Source: an uncultured Chloroflexia bacterium
GTDB lineage: Bacteria > Chloroflexota > Limnocylindria > Limnocylindrales > CSP1-4
Reading direction: 5' to 3'
Assembly (NCBI GenBank): GCA_963814125.1
Contig: CAWFBR010000001.1
Span: forward strand, 218,340-282,339
DNA length: 64,000 bases
Of the stretch, positions 8,519 through 24,745 are shown piece after piece; position 1 is the first letter of the stretch; the number at the start of each line of letters is the position of its first letter. Position numbers and translations under genes: made by a program. Under the pieces are notes generated by a model. That model was not told the origin of the DNA. It was given only the letters and a program-made list of their open reading frames with translations, and ran no database searches.

Positions 8519-8626
8519 TGCGGACAGGCAGGCCCGCCGTCGCGGAGGGAGAGGCTGGTCACACGCCGAGAATAGCACCGCGGCCGCGGCAGGCCCGCCG
8601 CCCACTCCGCGACCCCGCAGGGTCGT

Positions 8627-9366: not shown

Positions 9367-9519
9367 GTTCCTCGCGTCTGGTCACGCTGGACGTTACCGG
9401 CATGATTGACATGCTAACTACCCGGGACGATCGGTCCCTCGGCCGTGGTCTCCGGTTACGCCCAGCGGTCCGGACTCTGGCCGGACAGCGGACGCACAAC
9501 GCCCGCGAGTCAGCCGGGG

Positions 9520-10389
9520 CTATTTCGGCGGGGCTCCCTCGCGCGGCCCTTTGGATGTCCGTCTCGCCTCGGCCCCGGCCGCTCGACCAGTACTTCCCGA
9601 ATTCCCCGCCTCTGTCGTCGATCGCTTGAGACCCGGGTGCGCGAACCGGATTCGTACGAGGTCCCAGGCAACTCGGAGGGCCAGCGCCGGCCGGGCGTGC
9701 ATGCGCGAGCCGCGCCGGTCCGCCCAGACGACCGCCACGACCGCGATCCGGTAGCCTCGCCGCCGGGCCAGGTAGATCAGGTCCGCGTCGAAGGCGATGC
9801 TGGTGATCCGCAAATGGCTGAAGAGATCCCGGGCTGCGGCTCGCCGGAATCCTTTGAAGCCGCACTGGGTGTCCTTCACCGGACCCGTCACCCAGAGCTG
9901 AGCGGCGAACCGGAAGAGCCGCCCGACAAGGCGCCGGAAACGCGGCTGGCTAACCCGCATGTCCGAGCCGTCGGGCTGGATGCGGCTGCCGAGGGCGACG
10001 TCCGAGGTCTCGAGCGCCTCGACCAGCTTGGCCAGCTGATCGGGTGGCGTAGCCATGTCGGCGTCGGCAAAGACGAGGGCGCCGGCGTCCGCGGCGAGCA
10101 TCCCGGCCCGAACGGCGGAGCCCTTGCCGCCATGCGGGACTGTCAGGAGCGCGAGAGCGGGACAGCCGCGGCGTGACGAGGCCGCCCCTTCGACCGTGAA
10201 CTCTGGTCTGGCCCGCACCAACGCCGCGGTCCCGTCCGTGCTGCCGTCGTCCACGACGAGCACGCTCACCAGGTCGGGCAGGTCCCCGGACGGCGCCGAA
10301 CACAGGTATGCGAACAGCTCATCAAGAGCGGGCCCCAGGCGGGACTCCTCGTTGTACGCGGGAAGAACGATAGCCAGGCTGGAAAACAT
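9520..10389 (-). CDS. GT2 polyprenol-phosphate glycosyltransferase (Ppm1/DPM1/ArnC-like)
   Basis: MFSSLAIVLPAYNEE…VLVVDDGSTDGT…ADADMATPP… is the GT2 DPM-synthase family signature. Confidence 0.8.
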   Translation of the reverse strand: MFSSLAIVLPAYNEESRLGPALDELFAYLCSAPSGDLPDLVSVLVVDDGSTDGTAALVRARPEFTVEGAASSRRGCPALALLTVPHGGKGSAVRAGMLAADAGALVFADADMATPPDQLAKLVEALETSDVALGSRIQPDGSDMRVSQPRFRRLVGRLFRFAAQLWVTGPVKDTQCGFKGFRRAAARDLFSHLRITSIAFDADLIYLARRRGYRIAVVAVVWADRRGSRMHARPALALRVAWDLVRIRFAHPGLKRSTTEAGNSGSTGRAAGAEARRTSKGPREGAPPK

Positions 10390-10482
10390 GATCGGGAGTG
10401 TACGGGCCTGCCCCTCGGTTCGCACCGTCCGCTGCGGCGCTAGGACTGCCCGGTCCGCCGGTCGGCGGCCACGATAGGTCGT

Positions 10483-11532
10483 TTGTACCGGTGGAGGCAG
10501 TCCCGGCCGATGCTACGCTGCGCCGACGTGCGGATCCTCTTCGCTCTGTTTGCGTTTGCCCTGGTCGTGAGGGCGCTGCTGTTCGGGTTGCACCCGGACG
10601 CGGCTTACCCCGACTCGTACTACTACGTGGACGTCGCTCGGGCGTTGCAGGCCGGACACGGCTTCAACATCGACTTCATCTACTCCTTCCTGGACGTCGG
10701 CGGCAGGATCCCGCCCAACCCCACCCTGCCGATCCCGAGCAACGGCTTCTGGATGCCTCTCGCCTCGATCGTCCAGGTGCCGACGATGTGGCTGCTCGGA
10801 CCCACAGCGCTTGCCTCCGCCCTGCCGTTCATCCTTGTCGGCTCGCTCGCCGCGCCGCTGACGTGGCTGGTTGCGAGAGAAATCGGCTGCCGGCCCGCGG
10901 TGGCTCTGGCGGCTGGAATCGCCGTAGCCAGTCCCGCGGCCTGGGGCAGGCTGCGAGCCTGGCGCTCAGGGGGTGCCCGAACGCCCGCGATACCGTGGCG
11001 ATATGCCTTGGCCTGCCTCGGCCTGTTCCTCCTCGCGATGGCGCCCTGGTACCTGCGCCAGCTGGCCGTCTTCGGCAGCCTCTCCCCGTCGTCGGGCTCC
11101 GGCAGTGTCTTCTTCATCCAGCACTACGACGACATCGAGCGCGTCGGCGGGGACATATCGCTGACGGCATACCTTGGCCAGGGTCTGGTCCCGCTCCTCA
11201 CCAGCCGGCTGGTCGGATTGGCGGCCGCGCTCGGCATCTTCGCCGTGCTTGCCCGTTCGCTGGCCCTCGCTCCGTTCGTGGTGGTTGGCGGTTGGGCCCA
11301 TATCGTCGCGCCACTCGCGCCGGTGATCGAATCGGTGGTGCGACCGAGCTGGCTGGGCCCGCCGATCTTCGTGATCCCGTACACATGGCCCCGGACCGGC
11401 GATCCGGCCGCGGACAGCGCGCCGGCTCTGGCGATCTACCCGGTCTGCATCGCCGCCACCGATACGCGCTGCGGGGCAGCCCCGGCCACTGCGCAGGTCC
11501 CCGGCGGCGCCGGGATCGAGTACCTGCCGTGA
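10483..11532 (+). CDS. GT-C fold membrane glycosyltransferase (ArnT/PMT_2-like, GT39/GT83 family)
   Basis: Multiple TM helices and an N-terminal loop motif PDSYYYVDVARALQAGHG (the ArnT/PMT D-E/Y…A…G loop). Divergent from the GT2 gene. Confidence 0.7.
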   Translation: MYRWRQSRPMLRCADVRILFALFAFALVVRALLFGLHPDAAYPDSYYYVDVARALQAGHGFNIDFIYSFLDVGGRIPPNPTLPIPSNGFWMPLASIVQVPTMWLLGPTALASALPFILVGSLAAPLTWLVAREIGCRPAVALAAGIAVASPAAWGRLRAWRSGGARTPAIPWRYALACLGLFLLAMAPWYLRQLAVFGSLSPSSGSGSVFFIQHYDDIERVGGDISLTAYLGQGLVPLLTSRLVGLAAALGIFAVLARSLALAPFVVVGGWAHIVAPLAPVIESVVRPSWLGPPIFVIPYTWPRTGDPAADSAPALAIYPVCIAATDTRCGAAPATAQVPGGAGIEYLP

Positions 11533-13238
11533 GTCGGCGCGAAGCCTGGATGAGTGCCGGCGCCGTCTTCGCCGTCGCACTCGTCGTTCGGGCGGTTGTC
11601 GCGGCCACGGTCGGCTTCCCGGTCCCGGAGGACACGGCCTACTACGCGGGCGTCGCCCGCAACCTAGTGGAGGGCCGGGGCCTTATCAGCGACGCCCTGT
11701 GGAGCTACCAGACCCAACCGCTGACGGTGCCGCGCGCGGCATTCGAGGTCTGGATGCCACTGCCGTCGCTCCTCGCGGCCGTGCCGATGGCGATCGCGGG
11801 TGCGGCCAACTGGTTCCGGGCCGCTCAAGTCGTTTCCGTGCTGGCTGGCTCGGGCCTCGCGGTGCTGGCATGGCGGCTCGGCGCCGACGTTGCCGCGGAG
11901 ATGCGACTGCCGGTCGGACGGGCACGGACGCTGAGCGTGGGCACGGGCCTGGTGGCGAGCCTGCTGGGCCCGCTTGTCGTCTACAGTGCCCTGCCCGACT
12001 CCACGGCCCTTTTCGCCTTGCTTGCCGTGGCGGCCTGCCTGGTCATGACCCGCATCGCCTCCAGGTCCGGGTCCGGCCTGGAGGCCGCAGTCCCGAGCCG
12101 GCAGCTGGTGGCCCTCGGCGCCATTCTCGGCCTTGCCGCCCTGACCCGCAGCGAGGCCATCTGGCTCGGGTTGGCCTGGTTGGCTATCGTGTGGCGCGGT
12201 TTGCCGACGCGGACTGTGGAGGGCTCACCGGCCGCCGCAACTGCCGAGGGAGCCGCCATCCGGTCTCCATCCCGCCGGTCGGAACGCCTTCGGCTGGCTC
12301 TCGTGCCCGGAGTCATCGCCGCGCTGGTCTTCGCCCCATGGGCCGTTCGAGACTGGCTGACGTTCGGCAGTCCGCTGCCCGGTCAGACGCTCAACAACGC
12401 CTTGTACGTAAGCAACGTCGACATCTTCGCGTACCGGGACCAACCATCCCTGGCCGGGTACCTGGCCCAAGGCCCGGCCGCGCTCATCGGGATGCACGTG
12501 GCCGGCATTGGCCACAACCTGTTCAACGTTCTGATCATCCCCGCTTTCCCGCTCGGCCTCATAGGGCTGCTCGTGCTCCCGAGAGTCTGGCGGCTCGCGT
12601 CGCTGCGGCCTCTCGTCCTGACCTCGCTCCTCATTTTCGCGGTCACCAGCCTGCTGTTCCCGGTCAGCACGCAGTCCGGCACTTTCTTGCACGCGGCGGG
12701 CGCGGTTCTGGTACTGATGATCGTCAGCAGCCTGGTCTGGTTCGACGCCTTGATCGTGTGGGTTGCGCGGTTGCGGCACTGGACCCGGCCGGTGGCCTGG
12801 CTCGGGCCCGCCTTCGCGATAGCAGTGACATTCCCCCTCACCGGAGTCTCGGTCTTCGCGGTCTCGCGCCAGGCCGAGGATGTCCGGGCCCGATACGAGG
12901 CGCTGCCTGCGGCAATGGCGCGCGCTGGAGTTCCTCTCGGAAAGGCCGGGCCGGTTATCACCAACTTCCCGATATGGCTGGCCGAGTCGGCTCGTATCCA
13001 GACGCTCGCCCTTCCTGAGGAACCGCCGGACGCCGTCCTGGACCTCGCCCATCGATTTGGGGCGAGTCTTCTCGTCATTCAGAATGACGATCTCAGGCAG
13101 TGGCCGGGTATCTTGACTCGCGACGCAACGGCGGCTGCGTGCTTCACAGAAGTCCCACTGACCAATTCCACGGGAGGAAAGCCAGTGGAAACCTCGCCCC
13201 TGGCACAAATACACGTATTCCGGATTGTCTGCCCATGA
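11529..13238 (+). CDS. GT-C fold membrane glycosyltransferase, paralog of the upstream gene
   Basis: Equivalent motif PEDTAYYAGVARNLVEGRG and many TM helices. A GTG start overlaps the upstream stop (GTGA); an alternative ATG is at 11550. Part of the 946-aa track ORF. Confidence 0.65.
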   Translation: MSRREAWMSAGAVFAVALVVRAVVAATVGFPVPEDTAYYAGVARNLVEGRGLISDALWSYQTQPLTVPRAAFEVWMPLPSLLAAVPMAIAGAANWFRAAQVVSVLAGSGLAVLAWRLGADVAAEMRLPVGRARTLSVGTGLVASLLGPLVVYSALPDSTALFALLAVAACLVMTRIASRSGSGLEAAVPSRQLVALGAILGLAALTRSEAIWLGLAWLAIVWRGLPTRTVEGSPAAATAEGAAIRSPSRRSERLRLALVPGVIAALVFAPWAVRDWLTFGSPLPGQTLNNALYVSNVDIFAYRDQPSLAGYLAQGPAALIGMHVAGIGHNLFNVLIIPAFPLGLIGLLVLPRVWRLASLRPLVLTSLLIFAVTSLLFPVSTQSGTFLHAAGAVLVLMIVSSLVWFDALIVWVARLRHWTRPVAWLGPAFAIAVTFPLTGVSVFAVSRQAEDVRARYEALPAAMARAGVPLGKAGPVITNFPIWLAESARIQTLALPEEPPDAVLDLAHRFGASLLVIQNDDLRQWPGILTRDATAAACFTEVPLTNSTGGKPVETSPLAQIHVFRIVCP

Positions 13239-14347
13239 AGGACGCCCCGTATACTCCAAGCGGTATGGACGCTGCCAGAGGCGCCGCAGAATCGCGTGAC
13301 TCGCGCTTCGACGAGTTGTACGCCGAGGCGAAATCCGCGCTGGGCTACGGGGCCAACAATCTCCGCTCTGTCACCGAGAGATACCGCGAGGCTTATCGCG
13401 ACACTCTGGGTCGCTGGCACCATCTCCGAGATGAGCTCGATGTATCCGACCGCGCCCCCCTGCCGCAGTCGGACAGCGGGGATCCGGAGGCCGCGGCCGA
13501 GGCGGGCGCGGAGGACGCTCGCCAGAAGGCGCTACGTGCCGAGGTCGAACGCCTTACCGGCGACCTGGGCCGGCACCAGCAGGAACTGTCCAAGCTCGAA
13601 CTCTCGGTCCGGAGCATGGAGAACTCCTGGCTCTTCCTCGAGCGCGGCGACGCCAGCCTCGTGGCCGAGGTCGCCGACGCGGGCCTGGCCACCGACTTCC
13701 AGATGCGCATCGTCCAGGCTCAGGAGGCCGAGAGATCGCGGCTCGCGCAGGAGGTCCACGATGGGCCTGCTCAGGCCCTGTCCAATGCCATCTTCCAGGT
13801 CGAGTACATCGAGCGCGTACTCAACGAGGACGTTCGGGTTGCCGGCAGTGAACTGCGCTTCCTGCGCGAGCTGCTGCGCCGTGAGTTGGGGGAGGTACGC
13901 ACCTTCATCAGCCAGCTGCGGCCCCCACTTCTCGACGAGCTCGGCCTGGACGGCTCGATCATGGACGCGGTCGAGAGCATGGCCGCCCTTACCGGCGCCA
14001 CCGTCGAGACCGAACTTCGAGCGCCCGGCGACGACCTGACCCCAACCCAGCAAACCGCCGTTCTGCGGATCGTCCAGGAAGCGCTCCAGAATGTCCGCAA
14101 GCACGCGGCCTCAAGTCGTACTGTCGTGTCGACGCGTACGGAGCCTGGAAGCTGGATCGTGGAGGTCTCCGACGACGGCCGCGGCTTCGACGTGAACGCG
14201 GTGGCGGCCAGGGGTCGACGCAACTTTGGCCTCCAATTCATGCGGGAGCGAGCCGATCTCATCGGTGCCCAGTTCGAGGTTCGATCACGGCAGGGCGGCG
14301 GGACTGTCGTCTGGCTGTCGATTCCAGTGGGAGAGGAGAGCACATGA
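13235..14347 (+). CDS. Cytoplasmic sensor histidine kinase, HisKA_3/NarL-type (DegS-like)
   Basis: Coiled-coil N-terminus, H-box EVHDGPAQALSNA, N-box IVQEALQNVRKHA, G1 box DDGRGFD, G2 box GLQFMRERA. The ATG overlaps the upstream GT-C stop (ATGA). Confidence 0.8.
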   Translation: MKDAPYTPSGMDAARGAAESRDSRFDELYAEAKSALGYGANNLRSVTERYREAYRDTLGRWHHLRDELDVSDRAPLPQSDSGDPEAAAEAGAEDARQKALRAEVERLTGDLGRHQQELSKLELSVRSMENSWLFLERGDASLVAEVADAGLATDFQMRIVQAQEAERSRLAQEVHDGPAQALSNAIFQVEYIERVLNEDVRVAGSELRFLRELLRRELGEVRTFISQLRPPLLDELGLDGSIMDAVESMAALTGATVETELRAPGDDLTPTQQTAVLRIVQEALQNVRKHAASSRTVVSTRTEPGSWIVEVSDDGRGFDVNAVAARGRRNFGLQFMRERADLIGAQFEVRSRQGGGTVVWLSIPVGEEST

Positions 14348-15087
14348 GTTCAACGGACCACAGCGGGTCGGACAGGCACCGGCCGGTGCCAGATGACCGC
14401 GGCGTAGAGAAGACGACAATCCTCCTGGTGGACGACCACACGCTGTTCCGCGTGGGCATGCGCCAGATCCTGGAGCGCGAACCGGGGTTCGACATCGTCG
14501 GAGAGGCCGACGACACCCGCAGCGCGTTCGATCTGGCGGTCCAGCTGTCGCCGGACATCATTCTCATGGATCTCTCCCTACCGGCCCCGGGGGGGATCGA
14601 GACGACGCAGCGCATCAAGCGCGAGCTGCCGTCGGCCGGGATCATCGTCCTGGCAGTGAACGAGGATGAGGACGCCCTCTTCGATGCCATCAAGGCCGGG
14701 GCGGCCGCCTTCATTCTCAAGGACGTCGCGCCCGACGACCTGGTCGCCATCATCCTTCGCGTCGCCGGCGGCGAGTACTTGATCAACGACAAGGTGTTTG
14801 CCAAGCCAGCCGTGGCGAGCCGCGTGCTCAAGGAGTTCCGCGAGCTGGCTATCTACGGCCAGGAAGCGGCCCCGATCTTCGCACCGCTGTCGCCGCGCGA
14901 GGTCGAGATCCTCGACAACATCGCCCAGGGAATGACGAACAAGCAGGTCGCCTACGCCCTGTCCATCAGCGAGCAAACCGTCAAGAACCACATGTCCAGC
15001 ATCCTGCGCAAGCTCAGCGTGAACGACCGCACCCAGGCCGTCGTGTACGCCATGCGTCAGGGCTGGATCCGGATGCCCGAGGACTGA
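14344..15087 (+). CDS. NarL/LuxR-family response regulator (REC + HTH_LuxR)
   Basis: ILLVDDHTLFRVG…IILMDLSLP receiver domain, and a C-terminal LSPREVEILDNIAQGMTNKQVAYALSISEQTVKNHMSSILRKL. Confidence 0.85.
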   Translation: MSSTDHSGSDRHRPVPDDRGVEKTTILLVDDHTLFRVGMRQILEREPGFDIVGEADDTRSAFDLAVQLSPDIILMDLSLPAPGGIETTQRIKRELPSAGIIVLAVNEDEDALFDAIKAGAAAFILKDVAPDDLVAIILRVAGGEYLINDKVFAKPAVASRVLKEFRELAIYGQEAAPIFAPLSPREVEILDNIAQGMTNKQVAYALSISEQTVKNHMSSILRKLSVNDRTQAVVYAMRQGWIRMPED

Positions 15088-15094
15088 GCTGCCC

Positions 15095-16261
15095 GTGGCC
15101 ATCGAACCGATGCCGCTCCCACTTCTCGAGCTCGCGGAGCGGGCCAGACGCGAAGTCGATCTTCTGACCCGGGAGATCGGCGAGTTGGAGCTGCTCGTCC
15201 AACAGGCCCGCACGGAAGCCAGCCGGCACGAGCAGAAGCGCTCCCAGGCTGCCGACAAGCTCAAACCTTCGGGCAAGGGATCCACCCCCGAGGTGGACAA
15301 CCAGGTCGAGCAGCTCCTGGCGTTGACCAAGCGCTCCGCGGTCATGGAGTCGCAGATCGAGATCCTCGAGGGCAAGCTCAAGATCCTGACCCGCTTCCGG
15401 GAGAGCCTGCGCCGCTACAGTTCCGAGCTGGACCGAGCATCGATGGGCGGTGCGATGCCCCAGCACACGTCGGGCAAGCTGGACACGAGCACGCCGCTCC
15501 CACCGGCAGTCTCGCGCCTGGTTCAGGCGGCTCAAGAAGACCTCCGCCGAGAGATCGCGCGGGCGATGCACGACGGCCCGGCCCAGAGCCTGACCAACAT
15601 CGTGCTTCAGGCCCAGATCGTGGAGCGGCTGCTGGAGCGCGACCCGGCCGCGGCCAGGGCGGAGATCGGGCAACTCGTGGCCATGGTCCAGCACACGCTC
15701 GACGCGACCAAGACATTCATCTTCGACGTGCGACCCATGGTCCTGGACGACCTCGGCCTCGTACCCACTCTCCGGCGAGTAGCACGGGATCGGGGCCGCC
15801 GTTCGCAGATTCCCATCGAATTCGAGTCGTACGGCACAGACCGCCGCCTGCCCATGGACGTCGAAAGCGCGCTCTTCCGCATCATCGACGAATCCGTCAC
15901 CGGCTTCCTATCGTGCCATCCGGACCGGATATCCATCCGCTTCGAATGGGCGGACAGCCCAGAGGCGCGCATCTCCGCCAAGCGCGAGGGTGTCGAAGAA
16001 CCCGACGAGCCCGAGTTCGAGACACCGTTGCCGGGGGACAAACATGGCCGGGCGGTCGATCGGGATCTCCCGGAGGCGCTCAAGGCGATGATCGACGAGA
16101 CACGGGCAGCCAAGGTGTCCCGCGCGGCCCGGACCAACCAGACGCTGGCCCTGCCCCCCAATACCTGGCGAGAGATTCAGCAGCGTGCGGCCACGATCGG
16201 CGTCACGGCCGAGCTCGTGGACGAAGGCCGGGAGGTCGTCCTGGTCCTGGCCGCGAGTTGA
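15095..16261 (+). CDS. DegS-like histidine-kinase paralog with a degenerate ATPase domain (probable pseudokinase, phosphatase or modulator)
   Basis: Coiled-coil N-terminus. The H-box is conserved (AMHDGPAQSLTNIVLQAQIVERL). The C-terminal half lacks the N-box Asn and the DxGxG/GxGL motifs (RIIDESVTGF…). Confidence 0.55.
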   Translation: MAIEPMPLPLLELAERARREVDLLTREIGELELLVQQARTEASRHEQKRSQAADKLKPSGKGSTPEVDNQVEQLLALTKRSAVMESQIEILEGKLKILTRFRESLRRYSSELDRASMGGAMPQHTSGKLDTSTPLPPAVSRLVQAAQEDLRREIARAMHDGPAQSLTNIVLQAQIVERLLERDPAAARAEIGQLVAMVQHTLDATKTFIFDVRPMVLDDLGLVPTLRRVARDRGRRSQIPIEFESYGTDRRLPMDVESALFRIIDESVTGFLSCHPDRISIRFEWADSPEARISAKREGVEEPDEPEFETPLPGDKHGRAVDRDLPEALKAMIDETRAAKVSRAARTNQTLALPPNTWREIQQRAATIGVTAELVDEGREVVLVLAAS

Positions 16262-16344
16262 CCGAAAGCCTGCCAGCCGCGGATCCGGGGGTTTGGTCGG
16301 AGTCGCCTGCAGAGAGACTCCGGAGACATCCAACGGCGAGTCTT

Positions 16345-16497
16345 CCTTCAACGGAACGGTCAGGGCATCAGTCCGGTCAGGGCCTGATCGAGTACGGGCT
16401 CATCCTCGTCTTGATGGCCGTGGTCTGCGTCGTGTCGCTGGTCTTCTTCGAGGACCAGCTCTCCTCCCTGCTGAGTCTGATCACGTCGGCCGTGTGA
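16345..16497 (+). pseudogene. Flp-pilin-like ORF without a canonical start codon
   Basis: The frame encodes …TERSGHQSGQGLIEYGLILVLMAVVCVVSLVFFEDQLSSLLSLITSAV (Flp motif G/xxEY + hydrophobic core). There is no in-frame ATG, GTG or TTG between 16261 and 16380. Confidence 0.35.
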
Positions 16498-16669
16498 TCG
16501 TTGCGTTGACAGCACGCGCCGACTTCGCCCATCAGGCACGCCGAACCGAGGTCGGGAAGGTGGGGTTACGGGCGGTCCCATTACCATCTTGCTAGTGGCG
16601 CCCGGAGGACCCGCCACCCAGAATACAGGTCATGCCTCCTATTGGAGGCGCACTTATCAGGAGGACATC

Positions 16670-16813
16670 ATGTTGTTCCGGTCCCAGAAGGGCCAGGGCC
16701 TCGCCGAGTACGCCCTGATTCTCGCACTCATCGCCATCCTCGCCATTGCCGCCCTCGGGCTCCTGAGCGGAAGCATCAACGGCATCCTCGAGGAGATCGG
16801 CAACAGCCTGTAA
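16670..16813 (+). CDS. flp: Flp/Fap family pilin (Tad pilus major subunit)
   Basis: MLFRSQKGQGLAEYALILALIAILAIAALGLLSGSINGILEEIGNSL. A strong RBS CAGGAGG lies 5 nt upstream of the ATG. The annotated upstream extension of this ORF in the track is spurious. Confidence 0.75.
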   Translation: MLFRSQKGQGLAEYALILALIAILAIAALGLLSGSINGILEEIGNSL

Positions 16814-16831
16814 CCGCCCCGCTGCGACAAG

Positions 16832-16868
16832 AAACGGGCCGCGCCTCAAGCGCGGCCCGTTTCGTTTG
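16832..16868 (+). terminator. Rho-independent terminator after flp
   Basis: Perfect hairpin AAACGGGCCGCGC-ctcaa-GCGCGGCCCGTTT, followed by a T-rich stretch (TCGTTTGTC). Confidence 0.6.
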
Positions 16869-17088
16869 TCCGGGAGAGACGCCGGCCAGATCGCCGGACG
16901 CGGGCCTCATGGCGATGTCACCTGGTCCAGGCGAACAAGCGTGCTCCAAACTGCCTGACATCCGCCCCCCATCCCGAGCAGATTCCGAGAATCCTTCCTA
17001 GAGTGCCTAGTCCATTGGTATAGTCGCAGTAAGGTTGTCCGCAAGGCTACCGTCGTGCCATCTGTCACATGTGCTCGGGAGTGTCGTC

Positions 17089-18057
17089 GTGAAACGATCG
17101 AATCGGCTGCTCATCCTGCTAGGGGTCTTTCTGGCGGTCGCCGGTGGCCTGGGGACGATGGTCCTCATCAACGGCAGCGGCAGCAATGGCGGCGGCGACA
17201 ACGGCGGCAACTCTGCGTCTCCAACACCTTCACCCGAACCCGTGACGACGGTCGTCGTCGCCAAGCAGAACATCGTTCTCGGCGACAAGATCACAGCGGC
17301 TATGGTCGACACCAAGAAAGTGACCATTTCCGAGCAGCAGCAGCTCGGCGCTGATACCTATTCCGATGTAAGCCAGGTGATCGGGAAGATCGCTGGAGGC
17401 AGCATCGTCAGCGGACAGGTACTCCTGGCGAGTCGTGATTTCCTGCCTCCTGGGACCGTGGCCGAGGGACAGGACATCGCGAGTCTTGTAGGGACCGGAA
17501 TGCTCGGCGTGATCGTGGAAGTCGACCAGTTGAACGGAGTGGGAACGCTGCTTGTGCCCGGCGACCGCGTGGACGTCATTCTGAGCGTGTATATGGATCA
17601 GGTAGCTCTGACGGCTGAGGACTCGAACAAGACGACGATCGCGCTGCCCGGCGGAAGCCGTGTGACCAGCAAGATGGTGATCCAGAATCGCAAGATTCTG
17701 ACCACGCTCCTCGCGCCGGCGGAGGCTGGAGCGAATCCCACTCCCGGCCCTTCGAGTGTCCCGGTAGCCGGACCCACTCAGGCGCTCGTCCAGAACACCG
17801 GGCGGCACATGCTGGTCCTGCTGGAGGTCAAGCCAGACGAGGCGGAGATCCTGCGTTGGGCTCAGCGCGAGGAGAGGACGGATCCCCCAACCTATATCGA
17901 CCTGTCGCTCGCTCTGAGGTCGGACAAGGACAACGATCTGCCCAACGCGACCACGCCGGGCATCACCTTCAAGATGCTCGTCGACAAGTACGGCGTCCTG
18001 CCGCTCGACCCGCGTGGCATTCTCCCGCCCGACCTGGCCCAGGGCGTCTCGTGGTAG
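17089..18057 (+). CDS. cpaB: Flp pilus assembly protein CpaB/RcpC (SAF domain)
   Basis: N-terminal TM helix, SAF-like region, 'ILSVYMDQ…' features. A GTG start is preferred because of an upstream GGGAG RBS. The track ORF starts at 17035. Confidence 0.7.
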   Translation: MKRSNRLLILLGVFLAVAGGLGTMVLINGSGSNGGGDNGGNSASPTPSPEPVTTVVVAKQNIVLGDKITAAMVDTKKVTISEQQQLGADTYSDVSQVIGKIAGGSIVSGQVLLASRDFLPPGTVAEGQDIASLVGTGMLGVIVEVDQLNGVGTLLVPGDRVDVILSVYMDQVALTAEDSNKTTIALPGGSRVTSKMVIQNRKILTTLLAPAEAGANPTPGPSSVPVAGPTQALVQNTGRHMLVLLEVKPDEAEILRWAQREERTDPPTYIDLSLALRSDKDNDLPNATTPGITFKMLVDKYGVLPLDPRGILPPDLAQGVSW

Positions 18058-18142
18058 AGCGCTCCGCCGACTCTCGGCGGAGCGAACGGCGAGAGGTCGG
18101 CCCCCATCGGCCTCTCCCGACAACTGGAAGCGACCGAGTTCG

Positions 18143-19372
18143 ATGACTGACCGGATCCGAGTTCTCATCGTCGACGACATTCCTGAGACAAGAGACCACC
18201 TCGTCAAGCTGCTCGGATTCGAGTCGGACATCGAAGTGATAGGCACGGCATCATCGGGAAATGAGGCCATCGAGATGGCCACCAAGCTGCTTCCTGATGT
18301 CATCCTGATGGACATCAACATGCCGGACATGGACGGCATAACCGCCACAGAGCGGCTCTCCTCCCACGTACCGACAGCCTCGGTCGTGATGATGTCCGTT
18401 CAAGGAGAGGCCGACTACCTCCGCCGTTCAATGCTCGCCGGCGCTCGTGAGTTTCTGGTCAAACCGTTCAGCAGCGACGAGCTGACGGCCTCGATCCGGC
18501 AGGTGAGCGAGCGCGAGCGCGAGAAAGTCGGGCGCGCCGTCGTCGTCGCCGCGCGTGCGCTGGAGCTCTCCGAAGAGGGGCGGGTGGTGGCCGTGTTCAG
18601 CCCAAAGGGGGGCGTGGGCCGAACCACAATTGCCGTCAACCTCGCCGTGGCCGCGGCTTCGGAGCTTGGCAAGAAGGTCACGCTCGTCGACGCGTCGTTC
18701 CAGTTCGGCGACGTAGCGGTGCTGCTGAACCTGAATCCAAAAGACAAGTCCATGGCCGAACTCGTGCCGCAGCTCGAGGGCGCGGGCGACCCGGACTCGG
18801 TCGAGGCTTACACCCAGAACCACTCGTCCGGCATTCGCGTCCTGCTCGCGCCGCCATCGCCGGAGATGGCCGAACTGATTACCCCAGCGGGCGTGAAGCA
18901 CGTCCTCGAGATCCTTCGCCAGCGCAACGAGCTGGTAGTTGTCGATTGCGCTGCCTGGTTCAATGACGCGACTCTGGGTATCCTGGACCTGGCCGACATA
19001 ATACTGACGGTGCTGACCCTTGAGATCACCAGCATCAAGAACACGCGACTGTTCCTCGAAGTGGCGGAGCAGCTCGGCTACGCGCACAAGGTCCGGCTTG
19101 TCCTCAACAGAGCCGACACCACTCTTGGCATCAGGGTCGCGGATGTCGAGCACTCGATCGGCCGCAAAGTCGACCACACCATCGTCAGCGACGGGCGAGC
19201 GGTCGTATACGCCCTCAACAGGGGCGTTCCTTTCGTCTTGAGCAATCGTGAGAGCCAGGTCTCGCAGGACGTGTTTCGTCTAGCAGCATCGATACTCGGA
19301 AGCCCAGAGCCGCGCGAAGAGGAAAGCCGCAAGGCACCCCAGAAGGGCAAGTCCCTCTTCGCATGGAGATAG
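18143..19372 (+). CDS. TadZ/CpaE pilus-assembly ATPase (ParA/MinD-like) with an N-terminal canonical receiver domain
   Basis: REC: IRVLIVDDIPETRDHL…VILMDINMPDMDG. ATPase: VFSPKGGVGRTTIAVNLA. Start at MTDRIRV inside the track ORF. Confidence 0.8.
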   Translation: MTDRIRVLIVDDIPETRDHLVKLLGFESDIEVIGTASSGNEAIEMATKLLPDVILMDINMPDMDGITATERLSSHVPTASVVMMSVQGEADYLRRSMLAGAREFLVKPFSSDELTASIRQVSEREREKVGRAVVVAARALELSEEGRVVAVFSPKGGVGRTTIAVNLAVAAASELGKKVTLVDASFQFGDVAVLLNLNPKDKSMAELVPQLEGAGDPDSVEAYTQNHSSGIRVLLAPPSPEMAELITPAGVKHVLEILRQRNELVVVDCAAWFNDATLGILDLADIILTVLTLEITSIKNTRLFLEVAEQLGYAHKVRLVLNRADTTLGIRVADVEHSIGRKVDHTIVSDGRAVVYALNRGVPFVLSNRESQVSQDVFRLAASILGSPEPREEESRKAPQKGKSLFAWR

Positions 19373-19404
19373 ATGCCCTCCCGGGCCACCAAGGGGTGTA
19401 GGCA

Positions 19405-20799
19405 ATGTCCCTTCTGAAGCGAATCGAAAGCGCCCGACCGGGCGTAGCCCCCGGAGCTCCGACCGGGGCCCCCACGGCCCCACCAGGGCCTCCCGGGATG
19501 TCCGGGCAGGGCGGACAGCGGCTGCTCAGCCAGGCTCCCGTTCGAGAGTCGCTCCGCGAGGTCAAGTTCCGCATCCAATCCCGGGTTATCCAGGATCTGG
19601 ACCCGAAGCTCGATCTGGCCAATCAGGTCGAGGTCCGCCGTCAGATCGAGGAGATCTTCGGTCGTGTCATCGATGAGGAGGGCCTGGCTCTCACCCGCGC
19701 CGAGCGGGTCCGCATGCTCGAGCAGATTACCGACGAGATCATCGGCCTGGGCCCGCTCGAGCCGCTCCTGCGCGACGAGAGCGTCACGGAAGTCATGGTC
19801 AATGGGCCGCGCCAGGTGTACATCGAGCGTAGTGGTCGCCTGGAGTTGACCAACGTCGTGTTCCAGAACGACGACCACGTCATGCGCATCATCGATCGGA
19901 TCATTTCCCCGATCGGTCGCCGCATCGACGAGTCGAGCCCGATGGTCGATGCGCGCCTCACCGACGGCTCGCGCGTCAACGCAATCATTCCACCGCTGTC
20001 CCTCATCGGACCGGTCATCACCATTCGTAAGTTCTCTGCCTCGCCGTTCACGGTGGACGACTTGATTAAATTCGGGACCGCCACGCCGGAGATGTTCGAC
20101 TTCCTTCGCGCCTGCGTGGAAGCTCGCCTCAACATCTTCGTTTCTGGAGGCACCGGCTCCGGCAAGACCACGACCCTGAACGTACTCTCCTCGTTCATCC
20201 CGAACGACGAGCGGATCATTACCGTAGAAGACGCGGCGGAACTCCAGCTCCGCCAGGAGCATGTGGTCACGCTCGAGTCGCGCCCATCCAACATCGAGGG
20301 CAAGGGCGCCATCCCGATCCGCGAACTCGTCCGGAACTGCCTGCGAATGCGGCCCGACCGGATCATCGTCGGCGAGTGCCGAGGCGGAGAAGCGCTCGAT
20401 ATGCTCCAGGCCATGAACACCGGCCACGACGGCTCGATGTCCACCGGCCATGCGAACACGCCGCGCGACATGCTCTCCCGACTCGAGACGATGGTCCTCA
20501 TGGCCGGCGTCGATCTGCCTCTACGGGCCATCCGCGAGCAGGTTTCGTCCGCGGTCGACCTCATCGTCCATCAGTCACGCATGAAGGACGGCTCCCGCCG
20601 CATCGAATTCATCACCGAGGTCCAGGGCATGGAAGGTGATGTGGTCGTCATGCAGGACGTCTTCCTGTTCGAACAAACCGGCGTGGTTGACGGCAAGATC
20701 CAGGGCCGGCTCCGAGCCACAGGCATCCGGCCCAAGTTCGTGGAGAAGTTCGAGATCAAGGGCATCCATCTGCCGCGCGGTCTGTTCGGCTTCTCATAG
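19405..20799 (+). CDS. TadA/CpaF secretion ATPase (type II/IV secretion NTPase family)
   Basis: Walker A GGTGSGKTT, and ECRGGEALDMLQAMNTGHDGSMSTGHAN is typical of CpaF. Confidence 0.9.
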   Translation: MSLLKRIESARPGVAPGAPTGAPTAPPGPPGMSGQGGQRLLSQAPVRESLREVKFRIQSRVIQDLDPKLDLANQVEVRRQIEEIFGRVIDEEGLALTRAERVRMLEQITDEIIGLGPLEPLLRDESVTEVMVNGPRQVYIERSGRLELTNVVFQNDDHVMRIIDRIISPIGRRIDESSPMVDARLTDGSRVNAIIPPLSLIGPVITIRKFSASPFTVDDLIKFGTATPEMFDFLRACVEARLNIFVSGGTGSGKTTTLNVLSSFIPNDERIITVEDAAELQLRQEHVVTLESRPSNIEGKGAIPIRELVRNCLRMRPDRIIVGECRGGEALDMLQAMNTGHDGSMSTGHANTPRDMLSRLETMVLMAGVDLPLRAIREQVSSAVDLIVHQSRMKDGSRRIEFITEVQGMEGDVVVMQDVFLFEQTGVVDGKIQGRLRATGIRPKFVEKFEIKGIHLPRGLFGFS

Positions 20800-20819
20800 A
20801 CCGAGGCAGGAGAGACGAA

Positions 20820-21836
20820 ATGGTATCGGTCATTCTCGGGCTGCTGGTGTTCTCAGGCATATTGCTGCTCGTGCTCGGCCTGACGAGCTCGGGCGGGAGC
20901 GCCGGCATCAGCGCTCGTCTTGAGCGCTACGCCGCCGGCAGGAACGAGGTGACGGCATCGGCTGGCACCGCTCAGCAGTCGCCCGGCATTGGCGAGATCC
21001 TCGGTCAGAGCGTGGCCCTGGCCCGCTTGAACCGAGTAGTGGAGCAGCGGGACTTCGGCGCCAGTCTGGCGCGCGATATCGCTCGCGCCGACCTCAAGCT
21101 CAAGCCCGGCGAGTTCATCGCCATATGGGCCACGACGATAGTGACGATCCCGTTCATCTTCTTCACCCTCGGCCTGGTATTGACACCGCTCAAGACACCA
21201 ATCGCCCTCCTGGTCGGGGCCACGGTCGGCTTCTTCCTGCCGCGCATGTGGCTGGGTCGCCGCCGGGCGGGGAGGTTGTCCGCGTTCAACAAGCAACTGC
21301 CCGACACCATCACGCTGCTGGCGAACGCGCTGCGAGCCGGGTCGTCATTCCTCCAGGCCATCGAGATGGTCGTACGGGAAGCACAGCCGCCGATCACCAT
21401 CGAGTTCGGCCGTGTCGTCCGAGAGGTCAACCTCGGCCTCGCCTTCGACGCCGCGTTGGAGAACATGGTCCGGCGGGTTCGGTCGGACGACCTCGAACTG
21501 ATGGCGACGGCGATCACCATTCAGCACCAGGTCGGCGGCAACCTCGCGGAAATCCTGGACTCGATCGCATTCACTATTCGAGAACGCGTCAGGATCAAAG
21601 GCGAGATCCGGACCCTGACCGCCCAACAGCGGCTGTCGGGCTACGTGGTCGCCGGCATGCCGATAGCCCTTGTGGGCATCCTCTTTGTCATCGCCCCAAA
21701 GTTCATGGAGCCGATGTTCGAGAACCCACCAGGCGTCCTGGGGCTGCCGGCCGGCATCATCCTCCTCATGGTTGGCGGCTTCTTCATGTTCATCGGGTTC
21801 ATCCTGATTCGGCGCATCGTCGCCATCGAGGTCTGA
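20820..21836 (+). CDS. TadB pilus assembly membrane protein (T2SS-F family)
   Basis: T2SF-domain pattern (…LPDTITLLANALRAGSSFLQAIEMV…) and three TM segments. Confidence 0.8.
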   Translation: MVSVILGLLVFSGILLLVLGLTSSGGSAGISARLERYAAGRNEVTASAGTAQQSPGIGEILGQSVALARLNRVVEQRDFGASLARDIARADLKLKPGEFIAIWATTIVTIPFIFFTLGLVLTPLKTPIALLVGATVGFFLPRMWLGRRRAGRLSAFNKQLPDTITLLANALRAGSSFLQAIEMVVREAQPPITIEFGRVVREVNLGLAFDAALENMVRRVRSDDLELMATAITIQHQVGGNLAEILDSIAFTIRERVRIKGEIRTLTAQQRLSGYVVAGMPIALVGILFVIAPKFMEPMFENPPGVLGLPAGIILLMVGGFFMFIGFILIRRIVAIEV

Positions 21837-21839
21837 GAG

Positions 21840-22769
21840 ATGCTTCTCTTCATCCTCCCCGCTTTCGTCTTCGCCGGGATCCTGCTCCTCATTCTCGGGC
21901 TGGCCGGCGGCTCACCGGTAGATCCCGTCCAGGCCCGCCTGACTCAACTCGGCTCGGCCCAGGCGAAGAACCTCGAGGAGCTCGAGCTTCAGCAGCCCTT
22001 CACTGAGAGGACATTGCGACCGCTCGTCGCCCGCCTGTCGAGAATGGGCGGACGCCTGGGGAGGGTCTCTTCGACCGAGGTCGCCGAGAGGCGACTCGCC
22101 CTGGCCGGCAATCCGGGCGATCTGAAGCTGGCCGACTGGATGGGCGTGAAGATACTGGTGGCCATCGCCGTCGGCGTGCTGATGTTCCTTCTTCTCGGCG
22201 TGCTGTCGGGCGACGTGGTCGTCGGGCTGCTCCTGGCCGTGCTTGGCCTCGGCATCGGCTATCTGCTGCCGGAATTCTGGCTGGGCGGCAAGATCAAGGC
22301 CCGCCAGAAGGTCATTCTCGTCATGATCCCGGACACGCTCGATCTTCTGACCATCTCGGTGCGCGCGGGACTCGGCTTCGACGCGGCTCTGGCGAAGGTG
22401 GTCGAGAAGCTTCCCGGCCCATTGAGCGACGAGTTCCGCCGGGCCCTCGCCGAGGTTCGCGTCGGCAAGGCGCGGCGGGACGCCCTGCGGGACATGGTCC
22501 CGCGCACAAACGTCGCGCCCCTGTCCAACTTCATCGGCGCGATCGTCCAGGCAGAGCAATTGGGCGTATCGATTTCCAAGGTGTTGCAAATCCAGTCCGA
22601 GCAGCTCCGCATCGAGCGACGGCAGCGCGCGGAGGAGCAGGCGGCCAAGGCGCCGATCAAGATGCTCTTCCCGCTCGTGGGCTGCATCTTCCCGTCCCTC
22701 TTCATCGTCATTCTGGGGCCGGCGATCATCTCCATCATGAAGACCTTCAGCTCGAACGCCATTCCGTGA
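21840..22769 (+). CDS. TadC pilus assembly membrane protein (T2SS-F family)
   Basis: Paralogous T2SF pattern (…IPDTLDLLTISVRAGLGFDAALAKV…). Confidence 0.8.
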   Translation: MLLFILPAFVFAGILLLILGLAGGSPVDPVQARLTQLGSAQAKNLEELELQQPFTERTLRPLVARLSRMGGRLGRVSSTEVAERRLALAGNPGDLKLADWMGVKILVAIAVGVLMFLLLGVLSGDVVVGLLLAVLGLGIGYLLPEFWLGGKIKARQKVILVMIPDTLDLLTISVRAGLGFDAALAKVVEKLPGPLSDEFRRALAEVRVGKARRDALRDMVPRTNVAPLSNFIGAIVQAEQLGVSISKVLQIQSEQLRIERRQRAEEQAAKAPIKMLFPLVGCIFPSLFIVILGPAIISIMKTFSSNAIP

Positions 22770-23152
22770 GTCGGCGGCGGCAGGTCGCTCGCAACGTCAG
22801 CCGCGGAACCCAACTCGCCGAGCGGCTCGAAGTCGGCTCATCGTTCTGGGCCAAGTTCATGGGTCTCATGGGTCGGGCGGCCTTGCCGGACGGCGACGGA
22901 CTCTGGCTTCCCGGCGAGAACGGCATCCACATGCTGTTCATGAGGTTTCCTATAGATGTCGTGTTCGTGGCACCGCCCTCGAGCGGCAGAGACGGCTCCC
23001 GGCGAGTGCTATCAGTGCGCCGGGCGGTGCGGCCGTGGCGGGGCGTGGTGTGGCGGGTGAGCGGAGCCAAGGGTGTTCTGGAGCTGCCGGCCGGTACGAT
23101 CGACGAATCCGGAACGGCGGTGGGCGACGACATCTACATCGGCTTTCCGTGA
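22766..23152 (+). CDS. DUF192 (COG1430) domain protein
   Basis: …WAKFMGLMGR…GLWLPGENGIHMLFMRFPIDVVFV… matches the DUF192 core. Its start overlaps the tadC stop. Confidence 0.5.
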   Translation: MSRRRQVARNVSRGTQLAERLEVGSSFWAKFMGLMGRAALPDGDGLWLPGENGIHMLFMRFPIDVVFVAPPSSGRDGSRRVLSVRRAVRPWRGVVWRVSGAKGVLELPAGTIDESGTAVGDDIYIGFP

Positions 23153-23325
23153 GCACGGCGCATTGCCGTCGGGAACCGTGAACCGGCTGAGGAGGCCTCT
23201 CGGCGCGGCCCGACTCCTGCGGATCGCCGAGCCGCCTGGGAGCCCTGTCGCTTCTGCGTTCGACGGAGCGAGTTGGGTGAGCCCCGGATGCGCCGCGGAT
23301 AAGGGGGCGCGTCTATCTTCGCCGC

Positions 23326-24009
23326 ATGGTTTCGCGTGCTCCCCACTCGATCGCGGCGTCGCTTCTCGATCTGGCCCTGCCGGCCGCCTGTCCGGGGTGC
23401 GGGGCGGAGGGCACGGCTCTTTGCCGCAACTGCCGGCGCGCCTTCGAGGGACGCCTGCGAACCCCGGCCGGGATCCCGATCGGCCTGCCTGCGGCAGTAC
23501 CGCTGCCGCTCGTCCAGCTGGAGTGGTGCGCGCCATTCTCAGGGGTAGTGAGGGCGGCTTTGCACCACCTCAAGTACGAGGGAGAGAGGCGTATAGCCGG
23601 ACCGCTCGGCTCGGCGATGGCGGCTCGATGGCGCGAGGTCGGCGCGGGCGGGGAGTTGCTGGTTCCGGTCCCGGTCCATGCGCAGAGAGCGCGTCAGCGT
23701 GGCTACGACCAGGCGGTCCTGCTCACTACCGGAGTCTCCCTGGAGCTGGACTTGCCGTGGCGAGCGCCGCTGGAGAGGCTCCGACGCACCTCGCCGCAGT
23801 TCGAACTGGGCCGGCGGGCGCGCAGTATAAACGTGGCCGGCGCTTTCGGGCTCCGAAACACGAGGGAAGCGGCCGCCGTCCGGGGAAGGTGGATCATCCT
23901 GGTGGACGACGTCGTTACGACCGGATCGACTCTCGTGGCATGCGCCGAGGCGCTCTACGAAGCCGGAGCGAGCGCGGTCGCAGGTTTGACGGTGGCGCGA
24001 GAGCGCTGA
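23326..24009 (+). CDS. ComF-family protein (ComFC/phosphoribosyltransferase-like)
   Basis: N-terminal zinc ribbon CPGCG…CRNC and C-terminal PRTase motif ILVDDVVTTGSTL. Confidence 0.7.
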   Translation: MVSRAPHSIAASLLDLALPAACPGCGAEGTALCRNCRRAFEGRLRTPAGIPIGLPAAVPLPLVQLEWCAPFSGVVRAALHHLKYEGERRIAGPLGSAMAARWREVGAGGELLVPVPVHAQRARQRGYDQAVLLTTGVSLELDLPWRAPLERLRRTSPQFELGRRARSINVAGAFGLRNTREAAAVRGRWIILVDDVVTTGSTLVACAEALYEAGASAVAGLTVARER

Positions 24010-24145
24010 ATTGGACATGGCCGGGTTCCGTTCAAGGGCCCGGCCTCTGTACCGGCCGCGTGGCGGCGGCTCATCAGAAGACGTCCATGCTCCGGAGGGC
24101 CTCGAGCCGCCCGGACACGGGCGACGTGCGTTGCGGAGGTCAGCC

Positions 24146-24745
24146 GTGAGGACGATCGTCAAGGGCAAGAACATAGACGTCTCGGACTCGGTGCGACAGT
24201 ACGCGGAGCGCAAGATGCGCAGGCTCGAACGGCTGCTCGACGACAGCACCGACGCGGTCGTGGAACTCTCGAACGAGCAGCATCGCAGCGCCGCGGACTC
24301 GCAGATCGCCGAGGTAACGATGGTCGTCGACGGTCAGATGCTCCGAAGCCACGCAGCCGGGCCGACGTACCAGGCCAGCCTCGACACCGTCATCGACCGG
24401 ATCGAACGCCAGGCGGTCGATGCCCGCGAGAAGCCGCGAGGAAAGGCCCGGCCCGAACAGGCCAGGGCGCGCCGAGCGGCCGGCGAGGAACCGGAAAGCG
24501 TCGCCGAGCCGGAGCAGCCCAAGTACCGGATCGTCAAGACCAAGCGCTTCGCCATTCAGCCCATGTTCGAAGAAGACGCGCTCGAGCAGATGGAGGAACT
24601 AGGCCACTACTTCTTCATCTTCGTAAACGCTGAGACCGAGAGACTGTGCGTCCTCTACAAGCGACACGCCGGCGACTACGGGTTGATAGAGCCGGTTATC
24701 GGAGGCGAGTACACCCCGGGACGCAACGTCCACAGGGTTGGCTGA
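24146..24745 (+). CDS. hpf: Ribosome hibernation promoting factor (long HPF/RaiA)
   Basis: VRTIVKGKNIDVSDSVRQYAERKMRRLERLL…, and the C-terminal dimerisation domain (…KRFAIQPMFEEDALEQMEELGHYFFIFVN…). GTG start with an upstream GGAGG. Confidence 0.8.
   Translation: MRTIVKGKNIDVSDSVRQYAERKMRRLERLLDDSTDAVVELSNEQHRSAADSQIAEVTMVVDGQMLRSHAAGPTYQASLDTVIDRIERQAVDAREKPRGKARPEQARARRAAGEEPESVAEPEQPKYRIVKTKRFAIQPMFEEDALEQMEELGHYFFIFVNAETERLCVLYKRHAGDYGLIEPVIGGEYTPGRNVHRVG

Follow-up and report, generated by a model that had tools for sequence, protein, structure and literature searches.

The GT-C glycosyltransferase TfpW, encoded beside pilA, glycosylates the type IVa pilin (bioRxiv 10.1101/2020.04.19.049825), and the PprAB two-component system controls flp-tad-rcp and Flp pili in Pseudomonas aeruginosa (PMC6821963, PMC3510237), a similar two-component system being found beside the Tad locus in Pectobacterium (PMC3767616). 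Tad pili, which are thought to be derived from archaeal Epd-type pili (bioRxiv 10.1101/2025.08.19.671072), serve adhesion and surface sensing and are widespread. As a rule, their pilins are taken as unmodified and the receiver of TadZ as dead; TadZ proteins are usually described with an atypical receiver domain (bioRxiv 10.64898/2026.07.08.737194). Here, we analyzed a gene cluster in a 64,000-nucleotide stretch of DNA (the window; contig CAWFBR010000001.1, positions 218,340 to 282,339) from an uncultured Chloroflexia bacterium of a class that is abundant and uncultured in soil and freshwater. Judged by its genes, the cluster joins known kinds of system, a Tad locus with an adjacent two-component system and a polyprenyl-phosphate-dependent GT2/GT-C module, and it would make post-translational and phospho-control of Tad pili testable in a concrete case.

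The window has a GC content of about 67%, for which reason most of its listed open reading frames (ORFs) are spurious; genes were called from a frame plot of GC content at third codon positions (GC3), from Pfam and NCBIfam searches, and from gene calls in relatives. All of the genes named in an initial annotation of this DNA are present on the plus strand, with the GT2 gene divergent on the minus strand. The glycosylation part comprises this Glycos_transf_2 gene (9520 to 10389, minus strand, divergent from the GT-C genes) and, on the plus strand, the genes of a 340-aa GT-C1 remnant (10510 to 11532, delimited by homologue alignment) and the 569-aa GT-C2 (11529 to 13238, from the GC3 frame plot, AlphaFold2, and Foldseek). 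They are followed on the same strand by HK, a soluble DegS-like histidine kinase (13235 to 14347, from Pfam and sequence reading), RR, a NarL/LuxR-type response regulator (14344 to 15087, from Pfam and NCBIfam), HK2, a pseudo-kinase (15095 to 16261, matched in Pfam by HisKA_3 only), two pilin genes, flp2 and flp1, and the Tad genes. Direct reading of the sequence gave 4-nt stop-start overlaps at 11529 (GTGA, GT-C1/GT-C2), 13235 (ATGA, GT-C2/HK), 14344 (ATGA, HK/RR), 16258 (TTGA, HK2/flp2), and 22766 (GTGA, tadC/DUF192), in agreement with the annotated overlaps except that RR and HK2 do not overlap and are instead separated by a 7-nt gap. A single 946-aa ORF covering 10398 to 13238 was considered in place of the two GT-C genes and was ruled out by a GC3 frame switch near 11530 and by the homologues, which show two genes.

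The order of these genes is conserved in related genomes. A genome scan with one genome per species, in which the window proteins were placed by tblastn, yielded 80 loci with GT-C2 identities of 45 to 82%, all of Limnocylindria type except three labelled Verrucomicrobiia or Methylomirabilota, which are probably mis-binned; the nearest protein homologues are labelled Candidatus Limnocylindrales (Chloroflexota). The arrangement GT-C, GT-C, HK, RR, pseudo-HK, flp, tad put forward in the initial annotation is maintained across the 80-genome set. Counting the loci long enough to judge, HK lies 200 bp or less from GT-C2 in 67 of 70, flp was found in 54 of 56, and tadA in all 54; the three HK exceptions carry insertions. 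In locus L049, a 1.8-kb insertion between GT-C2 and HK breaks their overlap; its ORF (12153 to 13379) is HipA-type kinase-like by translation, and it looks incidental. The overlaps also recur, with 4 nt shared by GT-C1 and GT-C2 in 54 of 75 related loci, by HK and RR in 50 of 72, and by tadC and DUF192 in 23 of 33, and with GT-C2 and HK overlapping in 55 of 78 (49 at –4 and 6 at –1). In distant loci, the upstream GT2, GT87, and GT4 genes are found 3 to 6 kb off (up to 8 kb for GT2 and GT87) while the GT-C1-to-tad core is still contiguous; the linkage persists to 45% GT-C2 identity and 31% CpaB identity, with the neighboring genes rearranged.

Five distant members (about 30% identity, motif FPP[LA]DDPAYY) served as seeds for a scan of metagenomes, which gave a further 51 loci. 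Among those long enough to judge, L089, L090, and L095 have a GT2 gene, several PMT_2 GT-C genes, and an LPG_synthase_TM gene (7263 to 8327 in L090, within the GT2/GT-C cluster), followed by an RR and a DegS-type HK. A 51-aa flp comes after HK in L090 and L095, and the L089 contig ends just past HK; downstream of flp, L090 has two TadE-like genes and a TadG-VWA gene (Pfam). Locus L084 carries a lone flp amid at least six GT-C-family genes (GT87, PMT_2, and TMEM260-like) and sugar-activation enzymes, and L092, L114, and L125 have GT-C, HK, and RR without flp. The association thus recurs in rearranged form far beyond the clade of the window, although it is not universal, and the annotated GT-C/Tad linkage stands, both in relatives with linked genes and in those of about 30% identity beside DegS/LuxR genes, flp, and tadE/G. 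Because of this recurring, rearranged association, and because the overlap chain ends in a pilin gene, a functional link among the GT-C enzymes, the DegS/LuxR-type system, and Flp pili is probable.

The pilin gene in question is flp2 (16258 to 16497, plus strand), which occupies a region (16261 to 16670, 409 nt) that had been taken as a gap. It was recognized by its motif, its GC3, which is high in the flp2 frame, and a weak Pfam Flp_Fap match (22 bits, E 1.5e-4, below the 32.2-bit cut-off). The product has a leader of about 40 aa, followed by SG/QGLIEYGLIL and so on, with a 39-aa mature part; these last 39 residues are QGLIEYGLILVLMAVVCVVSLVFFEDQLSSLLSLITSAV, and the preceding Gly completes a G/XXXXEY Flp motif. 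The second gene, flp1 (16670 to 16813, plus strand, 47 aa), encodes a prepilin beginning MLFRSQKG/QGLAEYALIL, which reaches 31 bits with Flp_Fap against the same cut-off, and its counterparts are called Flp_Fap in relatives. Both products have the G/XXXXEY processing motif and the hydrophobic helix by which Flp proteins are recognized.

Strong conservation of the mature part of flp2, with synonymous changes, extends to nearly all related loci; the leader is variable in sequence and length (14 to 40 codons across loci) and rich in Arg, Pro, and Gly. In the window, the flp2 frame has just one canonical start, the TTG at 16258 on the HK2 stop codon, and an in-frame start with the 4-nt HK2/flp2 overlap occurs in 37 of 62 loci with varying leader length. 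The recurrence of this overlap despite the variable leader argues that the leader is translated via coupling to HK2. In three relative loci with gene calls, the interval from the pseudo-kinase to flp1 is without a called gene; flp2 is a pilin gene that gene callers missed in the relatives whose calls were inspected. In distant members of the 80-locus set, the number of flp copies is three to five. Between the pseudo-kinase and cpaB, L047 (14905 to 16499), L050, L052, and L043 have four or five flp genes in tandem, and several of the tandem flp genes in distant Limnocylindria have an identical mature pilin with different leaders. A correlation between loss of GT-C1 and loss of Ser from the flp2 tail, seen in L032 and L033, was dropped because it is contradicted by L004 and L037.

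The initial annotation described one coupled chain from the GT-C genes to the end of the Tad genes. Translational coupling does not extend through the Tad half, in which spacers of 172 nt before flp1, 275 nt after flp1, and 85 nt between cpaB and tadZ, together with a conserved terminator-like element after flp1, interrupt the chain; with conserved promoter-like elements before flp1 and cpaB, the cluster appears to form at least three transcription units. We infer these to be GT-C1-GT-C2-HK-RR-HK2-flp2, flp1, and cpaB-tadZABC-DUF192. Upstream of flp1, alignment of 30 related loci with the window revealed a nearly invariant imperfect inverted repeat, CCCATTACCATCTTGCTAGTGGC (16577 to 16599, plus strand; CCATTA-N9-TAGTGG), which occurs once in the window against a chance expectation of 0 and is a candidate operator for a regulator. 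The same alignment contains a CAGAAT –10-like box, a CCTCC-N4-GGAGG hairpin, and an AGGAGG ribosome-binding site, the CCTCC/GGAGG stem-loop standing immediately before the ribosome-binding site (element span 16577 to 16665).

On the 3' side of flp1, a GC-rich hairpin with a T-rich tail (16826 to 16874, plus strand; –40.2 kcal/mol, z –3.5) was identified by fold energy and conservation as a putative intrinsic terminator; its stem, GGCCGCGCC…GCGCGGCC, and the T tail are kept in almost all of 25 aligned sequences, window included. A simple terminator scan returned chance-level candidates only and missed this conserved hairpin. The promoter-like element and leader before cpaB (16992 to 17088, plus strand) consist of TTCCTA-N18-TATAGT with an upstream TGG, followed by a leader of about 65 nt, conserved in an alignment of 25 sequences that includes the window. 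The leader contains the segment CCGCAAGG (GCAA loop), and its fold shows one compensatory pair in an alignment of three sequences only; an Rfam search over 9300 to 24200 gave sub-threshold chance matches only, and the cpaB leader has no Rfam match.

The Tad core, TadA, TadB/TadC, TadZ, and CpaB/RcpC, is present according to Pfam and TIGR03177 and corresponds to the rcpC-tadZABC core reported for Chloroflexota. All of its genes are on the plus strand. The first, cpaB (17089 to 18057), matches Pfam RcpC and SAF and TIGR03177 (83.7 bits, above the cut-off), and its GTG start at 17089 is deduced from the alignment of 25 sequences, window included. It is followed by tadZ (18143 to 19372), encoding a TadZ/CpaE-like ParA/MinD ATPase (Response_reg and AAA_31/CbiA), tadA (19405 to 20799), encoding the TadA/CpaF secretion ATPase (T2SSE, 220 bits), the platform protein genes tadB (20820 to 21836; T2SSF, 71 bits) and tadC (21840 to 22769; T2SSF, 73 bits), and the DUF192 gene (22766 to 23152; 56.8 bits), which shares the GTGA overlap with tadC. 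The locus had been called complete; no prepilin peptidase (Peptidase_A24; TadV/CpaA) and no TadE, TadF, or TadG were found among the scanned called ORFs of the 64-kb window, and that description does not hold for the window. These components may be encoded elsewhere in the genome.

The two kinases differ in their domains. HK consists of an N-terminal coiled coil, HisKA_3, and HATPase_c (above the Pfam cut-off) without a transmembrane segment, a DegS-like architecture as judged from its domains; a DegS Pfam match was found in the distant HK homologue of L090. RR has a REC domain (88 bits) and a GerE helix-turn-helix (79.5 bits), above the Pfam cut-off, and is NarL-like in NCBIfam. HK2 has a coiled coil and HisKA_3 with the H-box HDGPAQ kept and, again, no membrane segment; HATPase_c, the ATP-binding domain that holds the N and G boxes of an active kinase, was not detected in it by Pfam. 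It aligns to HK over residues 141 to 268 only (the DHp region), and its translation shows that the N-box Asn is replaced (DESVTGF). The annotated degenerate kinase paralog is therefore recovered as a protein with HisKA_3 and without HATPase_c. A DxxxQ motif is tied to phosphatase activity in NarX-type kinases, and because this motif is retained, HK2 may serve as a phosphatase or as a partner in phosphotransfer. The N terminus of TadZ matches Response_reg with 98 bits. When it is aligned to CheY, D12, D13, D57, and K109 fall in invariant columns and a Ser is found at 87; with all five CheY-position residues present, as had been annotated, this region is a canonical receiver domain, predicted from its residues to be phosphorylatable.

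GT-C2 had no Pfam or NCBIfam match at E ≤ 0.01 and no significant PDB sequence match, and none of its 120 best homologues has a Pfam domain. A look-up of the identical protein, made for its gene context, found no record. An AlphaFold2 model built on 48 homologues (pLDDT 83, pTM 0.87) was compared with the PDB by Foldseek; each of the top 31 matches is a GT-C enzyme (E 6e-7 to 5e-2, TM-score 0.28 to 0.56), among them AglB (the best), STT3, ArnT, AftA, Pmt4, ALG9/12, AftB, and PimE, and the first non-GT-C match appears at a Foldseek probability of 0.23. According to this model, GT-C2 has a GT-C fold with a multi-span membrane core, and a fold is now assigned to a protein family without a match in curated sequence families. 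The motif PEDTAYY, of which P33, E34, and T36 to Y39 are invariant and D35 nearly so among the 48 homologues, sits in the first outer loop after TM1 (helix 3 to 27 of the model). It resembles the ArnT motif PDETRYAE. A profile search with the GT-C2 family against 1.84 billion sequences, each representing a cluster at 50% identity, found 1690 clusters at E ≤ 1e-3, 1033 at E ≤ 1e-10, and 274 at E ≤ 1e-30; some distant relatives are labelled ArnT-like by JGI.

GT-C1 is paralogous to GT-C2 (29% identity across the N-terminal loop) and retains the N-terminal loop motif PDSYYY. Compared with orthologues of 564 to 567 aa, the window copy has two in-frame deletions, in which residues of approximately 121 to 185 and 330 to 495 are gone (about 225 residues), and it is the sole short form in its 120 best homologues, the others having 547 to 583 aa. 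Nearly all of the orthologues carry PF13231 (PMT_2), often with PF02366 (PMT), and the NCBI name for them is "glycosyltransferase family 39 protein"; the window GT-C1 had no Pfam or NCBIfam match and shows neither a PMT_2/PMT domain nor the full helix set. Of the two paralogous GT-C enzymes that had been annotated, GT-C2 is thus supported by its fold and GT-C1 by its full-length orthologues, whereas the GT-C1 of this genome reads as an internally deleted GT39/PMT_2-family remnant. A GT87 gene, which in close relatives lies between an F420 reductase gene and GT2, was not found in the whole window. With GT-C1 crippled and GT87 absent, only GT-C2 could be active in this genome. These changes (GT87 being absent from 9360 to 9520) reflect either genuine decay of the glycosylation module or a collapse in the assembly; within the 80-locus set, six lineages have no GT-C1 or only a fragment of it, and about twenty loci have no GT87. 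In L047 (8351 to 11623), GT-C1 and GT-C2 form one 1090-aa ORF, which may be a fusion, a frame coincidence, or a sequencing error.

The divergent GT2 (Glycos_transf_2, 78 bits) is 81% identical to its L002 orthologue, and NCBIfam matches it best to dolichyl-phosphate hexose transferase, ArnC, and PpgS, each under its cut-off; it best resembles a polyprenyl-phosphate-sugar synthase of the Ppm1/ArnC/GtrB type. It is this adjacent Ppm1/ArnC-like GT2 that suggests a polyprenyl-phosphate-linked sugar as the donor of GT-C2.

Beyond the cluster, the window carries core chromosomal genes (ATP synthase, mreB, rodA/pbp2, gyrB, prfA, and glyA), so the cluster is not on an obvious mobile element. Upstream are genes for a GH130 beta-1,4-mannooligosaccharide phosphorylase (5015 to 6088), a GT4 glycosyltransferase (6111 to 7622, minus strand), and a Mig-14/FemAB-like acetyltransferase (7316 to 8605, minus strand), together with a small F420H2-dependent reductase gene, also on the minus strand. 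The GH130 gene, which lies beside the GT4 and acetyltransferase genes, hints at mannose-based glycans in the neighborhood. Directly after the Tad operon (23326 to 24745) come a ComFC-like gene (double zinc ribbon and phosphoribosyltransferase) and the ribosome hibernation factor gene hpf. The adjacency of comF and hpf is a common housekeeping synteny, and Tad pili serve DNA uptake in Micrococcus. An LPG_synthase_TM gene (MprF flippase-like; 26636 to 27850, minus strand) follows 3.5 kb downstream of the Tad operon, and its product is a possible candidate flippase for a lipid-linked sugar.

Taken together, we propose that the cluster is a lineage-conserved surface-appendage module of Limnocylindria in three units, comprising a regulated pilus and pilin glycosylation, an explanation that is plausible but falls short of probable. 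The HK would phosphorylate the LuxR-type RR, which would turn on the pilin and machinery genes, with the inverted repeat upstream of flp1 as a candidate binding site of this adjacent RR. HK, HK2, or both would set the phosphorylation of the TadZ receiver and thereby gate pilus assembly. The Ppm1-like GT2 would charge polyprenyl phosphate with a sugar (probably mannose), and once this had been flipped, the GT-C enzymes would pass the sugar to an acceptor on the outer face of the membrane, the likeliest acceptors being the short Ser/Thr C-terminal tails of the membrane-anchored Flp pilins. We infer the sugar, the acceptor, the target sites of the regulator, and the phosphotransfer, and it is the gene neighborhood that suggests pilin glycosylation and TadZ phosphotransfer. 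If true, it would be the first case in which Tad (type IVc) pilins are glycosylated by GT-C enzymes. The broadest form of the proposal, in which Limnocylindria and some other Chloroflexota would have O-glycosylated 39-aa Flp pilins with dedicated GT-C enzymes, a kinase pair wired to pilin transcription and TadZ, and flp2 made in fixed proportion to HK2, is doubtful.

That the pilins themselves accept the GT-C sugar is a tentative assignment. It is favored because TfpW offers a precedent, because the GT-C1 orthologues belong to GT39/PMT, because flp lies in the L084 GT-C cluster, and because a membrane-anchored 39-aa pilin exposes a short external Ser/Thr tail. Several observations weigh against the proposal. 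In the pilin tails, Ser/Thr is found without a conserved sequon, and L004 and L037 lack the first Ser of the flp2 tail, yet their GT-C1 is intact. Several lineages dispense with GT-C1 or GT87, and the GT-C1 of the window is itself crippled. The structure of the Caulobacter Tad pilus is without modification density (PMC10710030). Searches for Flp glycosylation and for Limnocylindria pili found nothing relevant in the collection of literature used. About half of the long-flank distant GT-C loci (seven besides those named above) have neither flp nor two-component genes, and the GT4, FemAB/Mig-14-like acetyltransferase, GT87, and GH130 surroundings resemble a general envelope-glycan region. With regard to the three units, a scan for consensus promoters found none and left the cpaB and flp1 elements undetected, so the promoter calls derive from conservation alone; all of the genomes compared are metagenome assembled.

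The same surroundings, including the GT87 gene of relatives and the GH130 mannoside phosphorylase, are accounted for if the GT-C enzymes act with GT2, GT87, GT4, and the acetyltransferase to make an envelope glycoconjugate (a lipomannan-like glycolipid, a wall polymer, or other O-mannosylated surface proteins) that is co-regulated with Tad pili in one adhesion/biofilm programme, the pilins not being the acceptor. We regard this as a serious possibility, though not a probable one. Known bacterial GT-C enzymes act mostly on lipids and glycans, and ArnT, AftA, AftB, and PimE are among the fold matches of GT-C2; L084 and L090 have many GT-C genes and sugar-nucleotide enzymes with an LPG_synthase_TM gene, the distant GT-C loci without flp fit such a role, and the PprB regulon ties Flp pili to other adhesins (PMC6821963). 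However, GT-C2/HK/RR/HK2/flp2 stays coupled while the other glycan genes drift off, the flp within the L084 GT-C cluster stands alone, and the characterized members of GT39/PMT, the family of the GT-C1 orthologues, mannosylate proteins.

The absence of membrane segments from both HK and HK2 could also mean that GT-C2 is mainly a membrane partner or co-sensor of the soluble HK, reporting envelope or lipid-carrier status to the pilus regulon; translational coupling would deliver the sensor-less HK to GT-C2, and sugar transfer would be optional. The frequency of the GT-C2/HK overlap and the loci in which GT-C is followed by HK and RR without flp (L092, L114, and L125) agree with such a role, but the invariant acidic loop motif and the conserved GT-C core suggest a working enzyme, and we know of no precedent for a GT-C protein as a kinase co-sensor; we consider this explanation improbable. 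Finally, although all 80 genome loci come from one class and flp1 and cpaB have their own promoter-like elements with a terminator between them, it is very improbable that the adjacency is inherited gene order only, with a glycosylation operon and its own two-component system lying upstream of a Tad locus, given that flp2 overlaps the HK2 stop in more than half of the loci, that the linkage is kept at the lowest GT-C2 and CpaB identities while neighbors rearrange, and that the association returns rearranged at about 30% identity.

The proposed module of glycosylated, kinase-regulated pili shares features with several described systems. TfpW-PilA of P. aeruginosa group IV, in which the pilin is arabinosylated, likewise has a GT-C enzyme with an acidic motif in the first periplasmic loop and a gene beside the pilin gene. 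TfpW transfers a polyprenyl-phosphate-linked sugar onto Ser/Thr of a type IV pilin, whereas here the donor and the acceptor are deduced from genes. In TfpW-PilA, the type IVa pilin includes a globular domain, TfpW ends in a TPR domain, and tfpW is downstream of pilA with no two-component genes between them; the window, in contrast, has 39-aa Flp (Tad) pilins and GT-C genes that are upstream and coupled to kinases, a system known from genes alone. AglB, which N-glycosylates archaeal type IV pilins and archaellins, is the best structural match of GT-C2 with an identity of only 14%; it is an oligosaccharyltransferase that recognizes N-X-S/T sequons and has a WWDYG motif, whereas the Flp tails of the window have no conserved sequon and the N-terminal motif of GT-C2 is closer to ArnT/PMT_2 than to AglB. 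As in GtrA/GtrB/GtrC and CsbB/GtcA/YfhO (PMC5836110) and in actinobacterial Ppm1 with PMT, a GT2 polyprenyl-phosphate-sugar synthase would be paired with a GT-C enzyme; unlike in the three-component systems, no flippase gene was identified within the cluster, and GT-C2 is in no curated family.

The regulatory part is most similar to PprAB, in which a kinase and a response regulator beside the Tad locus control Flp pilin expression. In the window, however, both kinases are soluble and DegS-like, there is an extra pseudo-kinase to which a pilin gene is coupled, and the receiver of TadZ is canonical. Like the described TadZ/CpaE proteins, TadZ of the window is a ParA/MinD-type ATPase with an N-terminal receiver fold, encoded between cpaB and tadA, but their receivers are atypical and non-phosphorylatable, whereas here the five residues of the phospho-acceptor site are present. 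The canonical receiver of TadZ and the coupling of a pilin gene to a pseudo-kinase are the unusual features of this cluster among Tad loci.

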